This document shows, in pieces, positions 28,784-34,356 of a stretch of 64,000 bases of DNA; position 1 is the stretch's first letter, and the number at the start of each line of letters is the position of its first letter. The translations under genes were made by a program, and so were the position numbers. The stretch comes from a phage. Location of the stretch: the NCBI GenBank assembly GCA_016389475.1, contig GCA_016389475.1_3042.1; one strand, 5' to 3'. Under the pieces are notes generated by a model. The model was not told the DNA's origin. It worked only from the letters and a program-made list of their open reading frames with translations, and searched no databases.

Positions 28784-29257
28784 TTATTTGAACGATTTAA
28801 CGTACTGAATAGAACCTTTACTATTTACAAAGGCAATTTTACCATTTTTATTATACATGGTAGCAGTACGCTGATAGCCATAAGTTTGCTTACCAGATTG
28901 ATAACCAACTAATGCAAAATTATCTTCACCCATTTTATTCTGTTTAGCGCGAATGCGTTCATGACCATGTGCCATAAGAACCTTAGCATCACCAGTTACA
29001 ATGGATCGACGAGTTTTTTCATCTTCAACTGTATTAACAAAGTCGTCAAATGAATCAAATTTAGCATGAGATTTATTATACAGTTTTCCATCTACTGCAT
29101 AATTATATCCCTGTACATCCATCTCAACTTCTGTACCATCATCCAATACAGCAGTAATTTTCTGTCCTTTTTTAAATTTCAAAAGATCAGTAAAAGATTC
29201 AGCAATAATTTGAGAATTAATAGCTGCTTCAGTGATAAATTCTTGATATGTTTTCAT
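28784..29257 (-). CDS. internal-protein-like virion protein with capsid-targeting sequence
   Basis: Begins MKTYQEFITEAA (CTS pattern with L/I-x-E prohead-protease site); lysine-rich; early promoter 29311-29341 upstream. Confidence 0.6.
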   Translation of the reverse strand: MKTYQEFITEAAINSQIIAESFTDLLKFKKGQKITAVLDDGTEVEMDVQGYNYAVDGKLYNKSHAKFDSFDDFVNTVEDEKTRRSIVTGDAKVLMAHGHERIRAKQNKMGEDNFALVGYQSGKQTYGYQRTATMYNKNGKIAFVNSKGSIQYVKSFK

Positions 29258-29310
29258 GTGTTTCCTTTAAATATTTTAATTAGTAATTTGTCTCTTCAAG
29301 CAACTGTGAA

Positions 29311-29341
29311 TATACTATCACAATTCTAGGAGAAAGTAAAC
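29311..29341 (-). promoter_or_regulatory. early (sigma70-type) promoter for the CTS-protein gene 28784-29257
   Basis: Minus strand GTTTAC (29341-29336), spacer, -10 TAGTATA. Confidence 0.5.
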
Positions 29342-29345
29342 AACT

Positions 29346-29876
<531 letters not shown>

Positions 29877-30332
29877 TTAAAAGAGGCTGTTCATTATTCG
29901 GTAAAGTGAAGGACCCATCACATATTGCCACTGAGTACGAGGAATAAGAGCAAAAGCATCCATCTCTGGAATCATAACGCCATCTTTATTTTCAAAATAA
30001 GACTCGCAATGGCAATTTCTGAACATCTCATGCTCTACTGGAATCGTATAATAAAATAACTGTAAGTCTTTATTACTAGAATATTTAAATATACCTAGGT
30101 CTTCTAGAAGGTCTGGATTATAATTGCTAAAACCGGTCTCTTCTAAGCATTCTCTTTTTGCAGCTTCCAGTGCATTCAAATCAGAACTTTCTACACGCCC
30201 CTTTGGAATATCCCAGCGATGTGCCATCATTCCAGGCTTACGAGAACCAGTAACCCGACCCATAAATAAATCTTTATCTTCTGTCATAAAGATAATACCA
30301 GCTGATAGTGTTTTCATTTTAATTTCCTGCAT
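29877..30332 (-). CDS. nudE: Nudix hydrolase
   Basis: 151 aa; Nudix box GRVESSDLNALEAAKRECLEETGF. Confidence 0.8.
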   Translation of the reverse strand: MQEIKMKTLSAGIIFMTEDKDLFMGRVTGSRKPGMMAHRWDIPKGRVESSDLNALEAAKRECLEETGFSNYNPDLLEDLGIFKYSSNKDLQLFYYTIPVEHEMFRNCHCESYFENKDGVMIPEMDAFALIPRTQWQYVMGPSLYRIMNSLF

Positions 30333-30802
30333 TCAGTGATAAAGTTATTTAAATTTTGAGTATATTTCTTTTCATCAAAAATCTTTTGTTGTCTGCGTAG
30401 TCGCCATGGCATTTCAATGAACGTGTACCATATCCCAGATAATATTGCTGCAGTAAAAATATTAACAAGTATAGTTAAAAGAATCCAATCTCCTATTCTG
30501 TCCATTGGATTTTTTATAAAAAAGTAAAATACGAATGATGTCACAGGAAGACTAATAATATACCACAGAATCATAATTTTATCTGTGAACCAATCAGCGT
30601 TCGTTAACTTAGCGCGACCATTATGAATACACACGAATTTATCATCTGTTATAATAGATGGCTTAGCTGCTTGATATCCCATTCTAAACTCCCTAATCAA
30701 CAAATTTTTCATATCTTCGGAACAACCATTCCAGTCAACTCTATCAACTGAAATGCCATCATCCCCATCATCTAAATCATACCAGCGAGTTTTTAAAATC
30801 AT
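30314..30802 (-). CDS. small membrane protein (162 aa)
   Basis: Two hydrophobic helices; C-terminal tail ...FITECRKLK. Confidence 0.5.
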   Translation of the reverse strand: MILKTRWYDLDDGDDGISVDRVDWNGCSEDMKNLLIREFRMGYQAAKPSIITDDKFVCIHNGRAKLTNADWFTDKIMILWYIISLPVTSFVFYFFIKNPMDRIGDWILLTILVNIFTAAILSGIWYTFIEMPWRLRRQQKIFDEKKYTQNLNNFITECRKLK

Positions 30803-31173
30803 TTAATTTTCCTACAATCACTCACAAACTCTTCCATTGATTCTTTTTCAATATAAGACATGTAGCTATTATATTCCTTTAATTGTATTTTGTAATCTTT
30901 TTTTCTTTGCCAATTTATTTTAAAATTATCATAATGAAAATATAACATGGTACCAAAGAATGAAAATAATGAAATCGCTATAGTATAATGAAGTTCACTC
31001 CAAACTTCTATTATATCTATTATACCGCTGACGTTACTACGGATGTTTAAAATAAGACAGTCAATTAACAATCCAAAAAGACTACCCGCAAGAGCTGCAG
31101 CCAACGCTACAGCAAAAATTAAAAATGACTCAGGAAGAGAATATTTGACTTTATTTAGTTTTGGCTTTTGCAT
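30799..31173 (-). CDS. small membrane protein (124 aa)
   Basis: Two hydrophobic helices; C-terminal tail ...EEFVSDCRKIK, partly encoded by the next gene's Shine-Dalgarno. Confidence 0.5.
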   Translation of the reverse strand: MQKPKLNKVKYSLPESFLIFAVALAAALAGSLFGLLIDCLILNIRSNVSGIIDIIEVWSELHYTIAISLFSFFGTMLYFHYDNFKINWQRKKDYKIQLKEYNSYMSYIEKESMEEFVSDCRKIK

Positions 31174-31547
31174 CGTGATTCCTTAACAAATTTCATAATT
31201 TCATCAAATTCATGCGCAGCAAGTTTAAGCTGATGTTCCTTTTTAATCTTTTTACACTGAGCTTTCCAATCACGTACACGTTTACGATAGTGTCTTCCTT
31301 GATACCAATATCCTATCCAATTTATAGGTACTAATAAAAGCGGAACTACCAACGGAAGAATTAGTGTTGCTCCAAATATTGCACCAGATTCAATATCAGT
31401 CATAACGTCTATAACCATTCCAGCAATCACCAGAATCACAAATGATACAACTACCACAGGACCTATTAACACATCAGTAGAAATTATCTGACGCTTTAAT
31501 TCATACTTCAACGGTTTACTTGGAAGGTATAGTGATGGTTTTGACAT
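31155..31547 (-). CDS. small membrane protein (130 aa)
   Basis: Track start is TTG; ATG 31547 with AGGAA upstream; two hydrophobic helices; tail ...KFVKESRCKSQN. Confidence 0.5.
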   Translation of the reverse strand: MSKPSLYLPSKPLKYELKRQIISTDVLIGPVVVVSFVILVIAGMVIDVMTDIESGAIFGATLILPLVVPLLLVPINWIGYWYQGRHYRKRVRDWKAQCKKIKKEHQLKLAAHEFDEIMKFVKESRCKSQN

Positions 31548-32118
31548 ATTCTCTACATTCCTTAACAAATTTTTCTAATAATAAATCGCTTTCAAAATTG
31601 GGATTTTCTACGAATTTATCAAAAAGATCATCGACAATAGTTAAGATATTCTTTTTACTAAGAATACGTTTATTTTCATATTTTGTTTCAGAGTCAACTA
31701 TAAGAGTAAAGAAATATTTCTTGCCCTGAAATTTTACAGTAGTATCAATATAGAATAAATTTGACTTTTGTAAATTACGTTTAAACCATGCATCACTTAA
31801 ACTATAAACGCCAAGATAATCATAATCGTCGTTTAAATAACAGACCGTCCATTCAGGAGAAACAAAATCAGTAAATTCAACGTCAAAATCGCATGTTAAT
31901 GAATGAATTGATTCAATACTGTTAATAAGTATTCCAGGACGTATTAAAGACTTTTTACCTCTAGAAAATCTTCCAGAAAGATTTTCATCAGTTTCATATG
32001 AAGAACCCCAATAATAATTACGTCCTTCTGCCATACGTTTAAGAGCATTTAATAATTGGTCTGGAACATCAACTTGTCTTTGGAATTCTTCAAACATTGA
32101 ATTGAAATCACTTTGCAT
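31516..32118 (-). CDS. hypothetical protein (200 aa)
   Basis: ATG start; C-terminal ...EKFVKECREYVK resembles the tails of the three downstream ORFs. Confidence 0.5.
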   Translation of the reverse strand: MQSDFNSMFEEFQRQVDVPDQLLNALKRMAEGRNYYWGSSYETDENLSGRFSRGKKSLIRPGILINSIESIHSLTCDFDVEFTDFVSPEWTVCYLNDDYDYLGVYSLSDAWFKRNLQKSNLFYIDTTVKFQGKKYFFTLIVDSETKYENKRILSKKNILTIVDDLFDKFVENPNFESDLLLEKFVKECREYVKTITIPSK

Positions 32119-32146
32119 TTTTCATTCCTATTTACTCCAAGTAATA

Positions 32147-32160
32147 GGGGCCGAAGCCCC
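32147..32160 (-). terminator. C(UUCG)G tetraloop hairpin, intercistronic
   Basis: ggggccgaagcccc; 7 nt after the stop of ORF 32167-32760; no clear U-run, so perhaps an mRNA-stability element rather than a terminator. Confidence 0.4.
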
Positions 32161-32166
32161 TTATCA

Positions 32167-32760
32167 TTATTTCAGAGAATTAATATATTCCTGAACATCG
32201 GCAGAGGTAGTTTCAACCCCAGAAATATTGCCATTAAAGGTTTCAACTCGGGCAAGAGTATCTTCAATATCAACCTTAGTCAGCGCTGCAATTTCAACTA
32301 CATCATCAGCAGTACTAATTCCGAGGGCATTCGCGGCGCGAGTTTCACGGATATATTCCAATTTAACTGCAAGTTCTTGGCGAGCATCATCTAACTCAAC
32401 TACTTTCTTGGCGATTTCAATTCGCATTTCAGCATAACCATCAGCTTTAGTAGTCAGCTGCTCAGCTGTTCGACGATATAGTAAACCGAGTTTAGCATGC
32501 ATTGTTACATCTTGACCTTCAGAAAGGAGCTTGCGAATTTCGCGCTCTTTTGATTCGGCCTGCTTATTCTTTTCGACAATAAGTTCACGAATACGCTTTT
32601 CTTCGTTAATAGATTTAATGGAAGCAGTTTTTAGGTCTTTAATCTTATCAAGTAGTTTTGCTGCTGCAGCAGTATACTGTTCTTCAACAGATAGATTTTT
32701 AGCCATAACAGAACCAAGTTTAGTGCGAATAAACTCAACAATTTTCTTCAGTGTGTTCAT
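32167..32760 (-). CDS. hypothetical coiled-coil protein (197 aa)
   Basis: ATG start downstream of early promoter 32802-32831; long charged heptad-like helices. Confidence 0.55.
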
Positions 32761-32801
32761 AGTATTTCCTTAGGTTGATTAAAATTAAAATCCACAGAAA
32801 A

Positions 32802-32831
32802 ATTATATCATGCTATTTAAGAGATGTAAAC
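32802..32831 (-). promoter_or_regulatory. early (sigma70-type) promoter
   Basis: Minus strand GTTTAC (32831-32826), spacer, ATATAA; drives ORF 32167-32760. Confidence 0.45.
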
Positions 32832-33321
32832 TATTTTTAATTTTACAAATTCGTTCAGCTTCTTCAACAGCGGCAGTGATAATGCTTTTAGCTATAGGAG
32901 TACTAATACTAGTAGCTTTTACACTTAACACGATTTCTTTATCTTTACCAGGCCAACCCCACGATTTTTCACCATGAGTGCCTTTAATTACAGCAGACAC
33001 CTCAAGTGAGCATCCATTATCACATGTTTTTACATTAACAACCCAAGTGTCACTTTTCTCAACCGGTTTATCCCAGTAAATATTGAGAATACGCGGGACA
33101 TCAAATTTAGCAGGGCAAATCTTAACCGTAAGACCTTCGCTTTCTAGCCAATTAATAAGAGGACGTTCATACATGCGGCGATGTGGGCTTTGAACTCGAC
33201 AAGCCTTGTACCCATTGCTTGCGGCTTCACTAAGCTCTTCTAATACCTGCTTTTGCATTATTGATAAGATACCATCAAAAGATTTTTCGGAAGTTTCATT
33301 CAGTTCGGTATAAAGAGACAT
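32803..33321 (-). CDS. hypothetical protein (172 aa)
   Basis: Track start is TTG; ATG 33321 with GAGGAAAA upstream. Confidence 0.55.
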   Translation of the reverse strand: MSLYTELNETSEKSFDGILSIMQKQVLEELSEAASNGYKACRVQSPHRRMYERPLINWLESEGLTVKICPAKFDVPRILNIYWDKPVEKSDTWVVNVKTCDNGCSLEVSAVIKGTHGEKSWGWPGKDKEIVLSVKATSISTPIAKSIITAAVEEAERICKIKNSLHLLNSMI

Positions 33322-33377
33322 AACAGTTTTCCTCAAATTATAGGCTCATAATATCTCAATCATGAGCCTATGTAAAC

Positions 33378-33641
33378 TTATTTCATATTATTGAAATATT
33401 CTTCTGCAATTTCGTCGTTATCATGATAAACTTTAGAAGACAGTTTAACATAACCTTCAGCAGTGAACATGTTAATCACAACCTTTACAGTATACCACTG
33501 ACCATCTTCATTACCCATTACTGCGTAAGTTTCAAACATCGGATGATCAGGACCGATAACTTTAATATCATTCACTGTACGACCAAAATCTTCTGAAACA
33601 CATTTCATAAAGAAGTTGAACAGTTCGCCGTAATTATCCAT
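33378..33641 (-). CDS. hypothetical protein (87 aa)
   Basis: Track start is TTG; ATG 33641 with GGAGA 6 nt upstream; early promoter 33684-33714. Confidence 0.5.
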   Translation of the reverse strand: MDNYGELFNFFMKCVSEDFGRTVNDIKVIGPDHPMFETYAVMGNEDGQWYTVKVVINMFTAEGYVKLSSKVYHDNDEIAEEYFNNMK

Positions 33642-33882: not shown

Positions 33883-34356
33883 TTATTTGATTTGTTTAGC
33901 AGACCAAATGCGGTCTTTAATAATTTTTTGGATGTCTTCAACATACTCTAGGTCATGAGCATGTGGGTTATCTTTAAAGCTATGAGCACGAGCTAGCTTT
34001 TGGCCTTCAGTTTTGATTACTAAAAGCTCTTTAAGGATAGCTTCATATTTGGAGATAATTCCTTTAACGATATTTTTTTCTTGTGCGACTTTAGGATCTG
34101 CTTTAGGAGCAGGTTTACCCGAAGCCTTTGCAAAAGCAGCGCCAGTAGCAACTAAACTTTTCCAGGCCATACTAACTGCATTTCCCGTAAATCCTTCCGC
34201 TTTCATGTCGCGTGCGAACTGAAATCGCGATTCATCAGAAGCATCTTTGTAAGAATATTTACCCGCTGCAATGGCTGCTTTTGCGACAGCTTGAATTTCG
34301 GTGCTAGATGCTTCATTTAACACCGCTTCATTTAAAAATTGAGTATATGATTTCAT
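33883..34356 (-). CDS. internal-protein-like virion protein with capsid-targeting sequence (157 aa)
   Basis: Begins MKSYTQFLNEAVLNEA; own late promoter 34393-34400; bracketed by two near-identical hairpin terminators. Confidence 0.55.
   Translation of the reverse strand: MKSYTQFLNEAVLNEASSTEIQAVAKAAIAAGKYSYKDASDESRFQFARDMKAEGFTGNAVSMAWKSLVATGAAFAKASGKPAPKADPKVAQEKNIVKGIISKYEAILKELLVIKTEGQKLARAHSFKDNPHAHDLEYVEDIQKIIKDRIWSAKQIK

Follow-up and report, generated by a model that had tools for sequence, protein, structure and literature searches.

A shared C-terminal tail on the e.2 to e.5 proteins of T4-type phages: probable selection on the peptide and a secondary Shine-Dalgarno code

Introduction

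T4 is the best-studied of all phages, and about half of its genes are without a known role, e.2, e.3, e.4 and e.5 among them. The present work concerns these four adjacent genes, and the short C-terminal peptide (here called the tail) that their products have in common, as found in a 64,000-nucleotide stretch of phage DNA (contig GCA_016389475.1_3042.1 of GenBank assembly GCA_016389475.1; in what follows, the window). The window is that of a Tequatrovirus, with 99.4% identity to CAM-21 and 98.8-98.9% identity to wV7 and RB51 (megablast of 29800-32800, in which 514 phage records matched). The literature searched on this locus yielded no functional data for e.2-e.5, and neither that literature nor the annotations read for these genes yielded a prior description of the C-terminal motif. 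As set out below, the tail appears to be maintained as a peptide, with the ribosome-binding signal of the following gene written into the same codons as a secondary constraint.

A Shine-Dalgarno (SD) sequence lying inside the upstream open reading frame (ORF), together with translational coupling of the two genes, is commonplace in phage and bacterial operons. The internal proteins of T4 carry an N-terminal capsid-targeting sequence of the MKTYQEFIAE type, which is cleaved after an obligatory Glu, the gp21 consensus being L/I-x-E. MinD and FtsA, on their part, possess C-terminal amphipathic helices that target them to the membrane. Finally, the hyperplastic regions of T4-type phages contain PeSL, intergenic cassettes composed of a sigma-70 promoter and a terminator stem-loop (Arbiol et al. 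2010, PMC2839356; Comeau et al. 2014, PMC4122927).

The e.2-e.5 locus resembles translationally coupled genes in having ATGA or longer overlaps at four junctions and an SD 5-10 nucleotides (nt) upstream of the start, inside the preceding gene; coupling, however, accounts for the GGA-containing codons only and not for the invariant F, [IV], C and R of the tail, and the motif here also occurs where no SD or downstream gene overlaps it. With the capsid-targeting sequence the tail shares the placement of a short terminal peptide on otherwise different proteins of neighbouring genes, as well as a superficial F-I-x-E similarity, but the former is N-terminal, cleaved and found on soluble packaged proteins, whereas the tail is C-terminal, can dispense with its Glu and is carried mostly by membrane proteins; the likeness is taken here as one of general type and nothing more. 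A C-terminal helix with a hydrophobic stripe and basic flanks is also reminiscent of the MinD and FtsA type and would explain how the soluble e.5 protein joins membrane proteins, although the tails differ from that type in their negative mean hydrophobicity (<H>), moderate hydrophobic moment (muH) and conserved acidic residue in the stripe region, and in lying, in those carriers that have transmembrane (TM) segments, 24-39 residues from the membrane. Like PeSL, the tails are short repeated elements at gene boundaries of a variable region, where recombination between copies removes or exchanges genes; unlike PeSL, they are coding, in frame, conserved as amino acids and devoid of promoter or hairpin.

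The C-terminal tail of e.2 to e.5

In the window the four proteins end as ...NNFITECRKLK (e.2), ...EEFVSDCRKIK (e.3), ...MKFVKESRCKSQN (e.4) and ...EKFVKECREYVKTITIPSK (e.5). A preliminary description of this DNA had proposed that four adjacent genes share the ending F-[VI]-x-[ED]-C-R-[KE], and the recurrence is indeed real and non-random, the strict pattern being matched three times among the 127,996 six-frame codon positions of the 64-kb window (0.009 expected from composition), in each case at the end of e.5, e.3 or e.2. Two details of that proposal did not hold: e.4 ends in a variant, FVKESRCK, which has S-R-C in place of C-R-K and falls outside the strict pattern, and the motif of e.5 is not terminal, being followed by 11 further residues (...ECREYVKTITIPSK) whose codons overlap the start of e.4. 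The R-C codons of the e.4 variant, CGA TGC, also give rise to the ATG of e.3. Across a Tequatrovirus genome of about 170 kb, obtained as a composite of the window and three RB51 segments, the tails of e.5, e.3 and e.2 are the only places where an ORF of 40 codons or more contains the looser pattern F[VIL]xxCR; the pattern F[VIL]xxxRC is found only in the e.4 tail and in one minus-strand ORF (of at least 57 codons) of the nrdA-td interval, where it is not near any gene end. The shared tail is a motif at the protein C-terminus, some 12 residues long, that reads h-x-x-F-[IVL]-x-x-C-R, in which h is L or M, and it is the sole element common to the otherwise unalignable e.2-e.5 proteins.

Conservation of the tail peptide

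In a sample of ten distinct tails from five protein families and four genera, aligned on the Phe codon, mean entropy of the core codons was 0.35, 0.00 and 0.97 at codon positions 1, 2 and 3, respectively. The tails make use of synonymous codons for Arg (AGG, AGA, CGA, CGT), Cys (TGT, TGC) and Phe (TTT, TTC), and in the three canonical tails the changes at the F, [VI], [ED], C and R codons are all synonymous among the Tequatrovirus loci read. Among Tequatrovirus cluster representatives, the tails and the cytoplasmic segment that follows the second TM segment (TM2) barely vary, while the TM and loop regions do.

Word-indexed homologue searches returned only relatives of at least 69% identity and were of no use for deep conservation, and distant e.2 relatives were gathered by tblastn on phage genomes and one exhaustive HMMER scan; a related-locus search with e.5 gave 6 loci. 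The resulting e.2 alignment comprises 10 homologues, with identity down to 24%, from six genera (Tequatro-, Mosig-, Dhaka-, Gapriver- and Kanagawaviruses among them) and from metagenomic relatives, and contains 13 invariant columns, namely nine in the N-terminal domain together with I129, F154, C158 and R159, I155 being nearly invariant. Similarly, Mosigvirus e.5 keeps FIMECREYVK at 46% overall identity, Mosigvirus e.3 ends in ENFIKECRK at 38% overall identity, and Mosigvirus e.4 retains the variant form as FVKEIRCK. The preliminary description had asked whether, in related phages, the upstream F-V-x-E part would be lost and only the residues encoded by the SD would remain, and whether the tail persists where genes do not overlap. 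F, [IV], C and R are kept across six genera, and only the E/D position is looser, being occupied by G or M in the remotest e.2 homologues; the motif is retained in the absence of gene overlap in a Kanagawavirus gene at the e.5 position and in a Dhaka-/Gaprivervirus protein of 109 amino acids (aa). Taken together, this pattern of substitution indicates that the tail is maintained by purifying selection on its amino-acid sequence.

Further carriers in related genera

RB69 and other Mosigviruses have five carriers, namely e.5 (...EQFIMECREYVKANPIHAK), e.4 (...EFVKEIRCKSLNS), the e.3 mentioned above, ORF133c (...ENFIKECRGK) and e.2 (...ERFITECRNLR), and the genes downstream of them differ. ORF133c is a 101-aa protein with two TM segments, for which 150 records were found, all those listed being Mosigvirus-type coliphages. 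In Kanagawaviruses the tail is seen on the protein at the e.5 position (...LDFVDQCRANIKARKGAYDVL), on a soluble protein of 92 aa (...ELESFIQMCRGKQNVS) and, with Val replacing Cys, on a two-TM protein (...ELFIKNVRRK), whereas the 109-aa soluble protein of Dhaka- and Gapriverviruses bears the tail ...DKLFLEYCRSSIQV. The Kanagawavirus proteins are treated here as positional equivalents only: as homologues of e.5 or of e.3/e.4 they were rejected, since BLASTP found nothing and hhalign gave a collinear but weak match to e.5 with a probability of 8%. Also set aside was P0119, in which an N-terminal part of foreign origin precedes the final 25 residues of e.2; it is encoded on a 524-nt contig, is most likely an assembly chimera and was not used. 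A scan of IMG/VR for FIxECRK followed by TGA found no new carrier family, its 25 matches being known e.2 or e.3 homologues or short non-ORFs. On present data, the motif would therefore seem confined to this variable region in a group of enterobacterial Tevenvirinae.

Two further observations were made in these genera. The e.2 proteins of Dhaka- and Gapriverviruses (L013, L014, L015 and L018-L038) exist with two very different versions of the central TM region, ...DDKYICLQDGKAKL...EMPWRLRRQQ... and ...PDPLISYSKKYGFR...EVPFRISKVKK..., which, lying between a conserved N-terminal domain and a conserved tail, point to mosaic exchange inside the gene. Beside the e.3 homologue of Mosig- and Kanagawaviruses there are 3-5 adjacent small soluble ORFs that all end in W-[VI]-[SA]-S-S-x-x-C, the Cys being terminal (L016 7246-8041, corresponding to RB69 ORF136c-139c; L005 3357-4151; L042 957-2562). 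Besides the tail, this variable region thus has another C-terminal signature that recurs.

Overlap with the Shine-Dalgarno sequence of the following gene

It had also been claimed that the tail codons form the SD of the next gene, and this is borne out at all four junctions of the window, though the codons that serve vary from one junction to another. The best anti-SD pairing lies within tail codons in every case, with duplex energies of -4.2 to -6.1 kcal/mol and spacers of 5-10 nt, the SD being GUUAAGGAA for the starts of e.4 and e.3 (spacers 10 and 5) and UGYAGGAA for those of e.2 and nudE (spacer 6). The SD resides in the x-E codons (AAG GAA, GAG GAA) at the e.5 to e.4, e.4 to e.3 and RB69 e.3 to ORF139c junctions and in Dhaka-/Gaprivervirus e.2, and in the C-R-K/G codons (TGY AGG AAA, TGT CGA GGA) at the e.3 to e.2 and e.2 to nudE junctions, in RB69 ORF133c and in RB69 e.2.

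Such an arrangement could mean that the tail is purely a nucleotide signal, that is, the initiation region of the next gene, made up of the SD, an upstream AU-rich enhancer and possibly a repressor site, with the amino acids as a by-product. The location of the best pairing 5-10 nt from the start, which most junctions in relatives share with those of the window, would agree with this, as would the position of the motif in e.5 and e.4, which goes with the start codon of the next gene (lying 17-28 nt upstream of it) and not with the stop codon. The tails of e.5 and e.4 also have 16 identical nucleotides, AAATTTGTTAAGGAAT, and the E to G change in Kanagawavirus e.2 retains AGGA. The 16-nt identity is, however, absent in Mosigvirus, for which reason the resemblance of AAAUUUGUUAAGGAAU to RegA operator-like AU-rich sites was dropped. 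Moreover, variation in the core codons is mostly at third positions and four Arg codons are in use, F and [IV] lie upstream of the SD, and Cys is not known to have an RNA role. The codons that form the SD differ between junctions, and several carriers lack an SD in part or all of the motif: Dhaka-/Gaprivervirus e.2 ends TGC CGT AAA TGA, its CRK codons being free of an SD; the Kanagawavirus gene at the e.5 position encodes the motif as TTT GTC GAC CAA TGC CGC, about 30 nt upstream of a separate AAAGGAG; and the 109-aa Dhaka-/Gaprivervirus protein ends in ...LFLEYCRSSIQV, which is followed by a 64-nt intergenic gap. Hence the suggestion that overlapping translation signals explain the motif proved insufficient, the overlap being real but the motif persisting without SD or overlapping gene, and a purely nucleotide-level origin is given hardly any weight here. 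Since the genes are packed end to start, the SD of the next gene is written into permissive positions of the tail (x-E as AAG GAA, or R-K as AGG AAA), and the SD overlap is a secondary dual-coding constraint that shapes the variable positions and not the cause of the motif. Most likely it determines what amino acids the x, E/D/G and K/E/G positions can accept.

Tandem duplication as a possible origin

The tail could instead be a relic of tandem duplication, e.2, e.3, e.4 and ORF133c being paralogues of an ancestral two-TM gene, e.5 having received its tail through an offset boundary, and the tail being the part that has diverged most slowly, with no special function beyond that of the whole protein. 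Indeed, e.4, e.3, e.2 and ORF133c are adjacent and have the same architecture (two hydrophobic or TM segments, a basic stretch, a charged linker of 24-39 residues and the tail), the N-termini of e.3 and e.4 are alike (MxKPxL), Kanagawaviruses have one two-TM gene where Tequatro- and Mosigviruses have two, and an e.4::e.2 fusion in UFV11, described below, is joined at equivalent positions of the first TM segment (TM1). When profiles including the tails were compared by hhalign, e.4 and e.3 scored 34.9 over 108 columns and e.2 and ORF133c scored 35.0 over 60 columns, spans that would fit with duplication, while e.3-e.2, e.3-ORF133c and e.5 against the others gave tail-only matches; column-shuffled controls had a null of 11 +/- 2, and reversed and shuffled controls together spanned 11-20, so that the similarity of the complete profiles is genuine. 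After removal of the last 13-24 columns from e.2, e.3, e.4, e.5 and ORF133c, however, all pairs fell to 8-16 with a probability of at most 1.1%, i.e. to background, and gene duplication is thus not demonstrated.

The tail is also found on unrelated soluble carriers (e.5, the Kanagawavirus 92-aa and the Dhakavirus 109-aa proteins), and a neutral remnant would not remain invariant at 24% overall identity. Because the tail-less profiles are at background and soluble proteins carry the tail, what is shared is the tail and not a demonstrable gene family, so that the earlier description of the locus as a duplicated module of small membrane proteins is insufficient. A common ancestry of the two-TM bodies is plausible in view of their similar layout, but it cannot account for the soluble carriers, and the tail as a mere duplication relic is unlikely.

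Natural deletions and the tail as a possible recombination linker

In T2 and the IMG/VR locus L010, both without e.2, the end of e.3 reads ...TTTGTGA(G/T)TGAT-TGCAGGAAA-TTAAAATGAAAACA, in which the left part matches e.3, the right part matches the e.2/nudE junction, and the 9-nt tail identity TGCAGGAAA stands between them. Read in this way, the junction indicates that T2 and L010 lost e.2 by a crossover inside TGCAGGAAA, which would have left both the e.3 tail and the nudE ribosome-binding site intact. At a threshold of at least 60% identity, tblastn detected e.3 in 499 records versus e.2 in 448, a difference which suggests that about a tenth of Tequatroviruses may be without e.2. In T4 itself e.2 is frameshifted and truncated to 102 aa (e.2a/e.2b in T4T; L004 2860-3329), its old tail being now untranslated sequence before nudE, while the e.2 of the window is intact. 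The Mosigvirus-like contig L012 has lost most of e.3 (about 245 nt) but kept the tail and the junction. In UFV11 and UFV05 e.3 is deleted and an in-frame fusion e.4(1-30)::e.2(87-162) has formed where TM1 begins, through a microhomology of 7 nt, TCCTGTG; this fusion is present on 5 contigs (UFV11 L006 2501-2821; P0096).

It may be asked whether the tail is a recombination linker, a coding equivalent of PeSL that is kept because it lets accessory genes be gained, lost or exchanged in frame. The loss of e.2 within the 9-nt identity and the preservation of the tail and junction in L012 are compatible with such a role, and modular shuffling at repeated boundary elements has been documented in T4-type phages (PMC2839356). 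On the other hand, a microhomology of 7-10 nt suffices for these events, and the one used in UFV11 lies in TM1 and not in the tail; apart from 9-16 nt the tails have little nucleotide identity with one another, and this identity is not kept from genus to genus; and conservation is at the amino-acid level, selection for evolvability being a weak force. The breakpoints would accordingly be ordinary short-homology deletions, some of them made seamless by the tails, with no sign that the tails are maintained for that purpose, and the linker explanation is very unlikely. Nor are the tails PeSL cassettes, a candidate that was rejected: at the four tail junctions the genes leave no intergenic DNA into which a promoter cassette could fit, and the single hairpin (32147-32160) and the one strong promoter match (32830-32802) lie on either side of e.6.

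The tail as a possible sorting or turnover tag

A terminal peptide on unrelated proteins might serve as a sorting or turnover tag: it could be a C-terminal degron (ssrA-like or MuA-like) that a host AAA+ protease recognizes, or it could label proteins for a destination, as the capsid-targeting sequence does. The terminal position on unrelated proteins and the basic end (CRKLK, CRKIK) are in line with this, and the F-I-x-E core resembles the EFI[AT]E of MKTYQEFITE, the N-terminus of the adjacent Ip4-like gene. Nevertheless, the Glu position varies, with D in e.3 and either G or M in distant e.2 homologues; the e.5 protein, like its positional equivalent in Kanagawavirus, continues for 11-13 residues beyond the motif; and membrane proteins cannot be packaged into capsids. 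A tagging function is decidedly unlikely, and the specific identification of the tail as a capsid-targeting sequence or gp21 site was rejected on account of its C-terminal position and dispensable Glu.

In the same region, two minus-strand ORFs of 157 aa at 28784-29257 (MKTYQEFITEA..., Ip4 in RB51) and 33883-34356 (MKSYTQFLNEA...) have N-termini of the capsid-targeting type. With these Ip4-type ORFs and the tails, the region appears to be rich in proteins that share only a terminal peptide.

Predicted membrane topology and structure of the tail

The claim that three of the four are two-helix membrane proteins is well founded for e.4 and e.2, which have two strong segments each (Kyte-Doolittle peaks of 2.87 and 2.51, and of 1.99 and 2.17, respectively), and less so for e.3, which has one strong segment (2.47) and a weaker one (1.37, residues 61-79); e.5 is without a hydrophobic segment. 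After TM2 there are 4 K/R and no D/E in e.4 and 3 K/R in e.2, and the charges that flank the TM segments, together with the positive-inside rule, suggest that both termini of e.4, e.3 and e.2 are cytoplasmic. In the membrane carriers the tail stands 24-39 residues past TM2, behind a highly charged linker that is predicted to be helical. AlphaFold2 returned models of e.5 and e.2 with pLDDT values of 41 and 52, too low in quality to serve as fold-search queries, in both of which the tail is helical with low confidence, the e.2 linker being modelled as an extension of the TM2 helix and the e.5 tail as the last helix.

On such a helix L/M(-3), F(0), I/V(+1) and C(+4) would share one face, beside the invariant Arg(+5). 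The tails have muH values of 0.26-0.55 and <H> values of -0.19 to -0.42, compared with 0.27 and -0.10 for a MinD reference peptide. Negative mean hydrophobicity is a better fit to a protein-binding than to a lipid-binding helix, and the hydrophobicity values do not appear to support a membrane-binding amphipathic helix.

Proposed function

Considering all of the above, the preferred reading, to which we attach a probability of roughly 60%, is that e.2-e.5 bear a tail selected as protein, with the SD as a secondary dual code, and that the most likely role of the tail is that of a helix for docking or assembly in the cytoplasm. The hydrophobic stripe L-F-[IV]-C and the invariant Arg would form a common docking surface at the cytoplasmic face of the inner membrane, by means of which a variable set of accessory proteins could bind one shared partner, or each other, while the overlapping starts would allow co-ordinated synthesis in fixed proportions from one operon ending in NudE.

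Several findings weigh against this proposal. The chemistry of the motif is not fixed, as one Kanagawavirus protein has Val in place of Cys, the Cys of e.4 is displaced, and the acidic residue is G or M in distant e.2. The tail contains an SD at every junction of the window, so that some nucleotide-level constraint is certainly superimposed. Models with pLDDT values as poor as those obtained lend weak support to the helix and its exposure. Furthermore, for each of e.2, e.3 and e.4 there are natural phages (among T4, T2, L012 and UFV11) in which the gene is missing or broken, which means that no single carrier is essential, and the presence of the tail on e.2 and perhaps one other protein in Dhaka- and Gapriverviruses would argue against an obligatory e.2-e.5 hetero-oligomer.

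A more far-reaching and tentative idea, less probable than the docking helix, is that of a portable address peptide at the C-terminus, a short linear motif (h-x-x-F-[IV]-x-x-C-R) by which membrane and soluble accessory early proteins, in a set that changes, would be brought to one conserved host or phage partner at the inner membrane, new genes gaining the tail by short-homology recombination at gene ends.

Organization of the locus

The four minus-strand ORFs are the accessory early genes e.5, e.4, e.3 and e.2 of T4, as annotated in RB51 and T4 (msp4-msp7 in the old T4 record L13089), and the order e.6-e.5-e.4-e.3-e.2-nudE-e on one strand is the same in the window as in RB51, T4 and L13089. 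Their products are 84-100% identical to Tequatrovirus homologues, with 534-644 phage records per gene (tblastn), and match four separate PHROG families over their full length (Table 1). Local Pfam assigned no family to e.5 and e.3 and gave only sub-threshold noise for e.4 and e.2; PF26896, PF26876 and PF26873 are accessions precomputed on homologues. An Rfam scan of 29300-33400 found nothing. The e.2 protein consists of a conserved soluble N-terminal domain, two TM segments, a charged linker of 24 residues and the tail. The start of e.4 is the ATG at 31547 and not the TTG at 31568, and the overlaps e.5/e.4, e.4/e.3, e.3/e.2 and e.2/nudE measure 32, 19, 4 and 4 nt.

Table 1. Coordinates of the genes, tails and flanking signals in the window.
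Feature	Coordinates	Strand	Description
e.5 (msp4)	31516..32118	-	soluble, 200 aa; PHROG 2607, E = 9.5e-109; PF26876 precomputed on homologues
e.5 tail F-V-K-E-C-R-E	31549..31569	-	TTT GTT AAG GAA TGT AGA GAA; AAGGA = best SD for e.4, spacer 10
e.4 (msp5)	31155..31547	-	130 aa, two TM segments; PHROG 2604, E = 1.8e-69
e.4 tail variant F-V-K-E-S-R-C	31170..31190	-	TTT GTT AAG GAA TCA CGA TGC; AAGGA = SD for e.3, spacer 5
e.3 (msp6)	30799..31173	-	124 aa, one strong and one weaker hydrophobic segment; PHROG 2330, E = 7.5e-63
e.3 tail F-V-S-D-C-R-K	30808..30828	-	TTT GTG AGT GAT TGT AGG AAA; AGGA in R-K codons = SD for e.2; ATGA stop/start overlap
e.2 (msp7)	30314..30802	-	162 aa; PHROG 2203, E = 4.7e-79; PF26896 precomputed on homologues
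e.2 tail F-I-T-E-C-R-K	30323..30343	-	TTT ATC ACT GAA TGC AGG AAA; AGGA = SD for nudE; ATGA overlap
nudE (e.1)	29877..30317	-	Nudix hydrolase, Pfam NUDIX E = 6.2e-13; ends the overlapping chain, followed by lysozyme e
e.6 (msp3)	32167..32760	-	PHROG 1203; heads the transcription unit; without tail motif
Hairpin GGGGC-UUCG-GCCCC	32147..32160	-	between e.6 and e.5; putative stem_loop annotated in L13089 (T4)
Sigma-70-like promoter match	32802..32830	-	TTTACA-17-TATAAT, 11/12 positions, upstream of e.6; L13089 has -35/-10 at the equivalent place

Three side observations concern gene starts and ends. The start of e.5 shifts between phages with the length of an A-run and ATGAAA repeat (32118-32125 in the window; L004 1550; L007 3989), the protein beginning MQSDF here, MKMQSDF in T4 and MKMKMQSDF in L007 and L008. 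For nudE an in-frame alternative ATG exists at 30332 (30330-30332), made by the E-C codons GAATGC of the e.2 tail and giving MQEIK-MKTLSAG; it is used by the annotation of T4 and UFV11, not of RB51, and is without an SD, whereas the MKTL start has one. In the T2 record LC348380 (L003 2860-3831) nudE is annotated as a 972-nt ORF that runs into lysozyme e, the nudE stop being absent, which may be a real fusion or a sequence error.

Significance

The genes e.2-e.5 are known, annotated ORFs that databases treat as separate families, and a shared, apparently selected tail would be the first feature that ties them together, and ties them also to RB69 ORF133c and to several Dhaka-, Gapriver- and Kanagawavirus proteins. 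It offers an experimental handle in the form of a 12-residue peptide (e.g. TQNLNNFITECRKLK) with three invariant residues. The locus also seems a clean case of dual coding in nature: the same codons specify a protein motif and the SD of the next gene, and the comparative data separate the two constraints. It illustrates, too, that a gene can drop out of a tightly overlapping operon seamlessly where its neighbour has a similar end. If the address-peptide idea were true, it would define an unrecognised functional system linking e.2-e.5, RB69 ORF133c and others, possibly including NudE.

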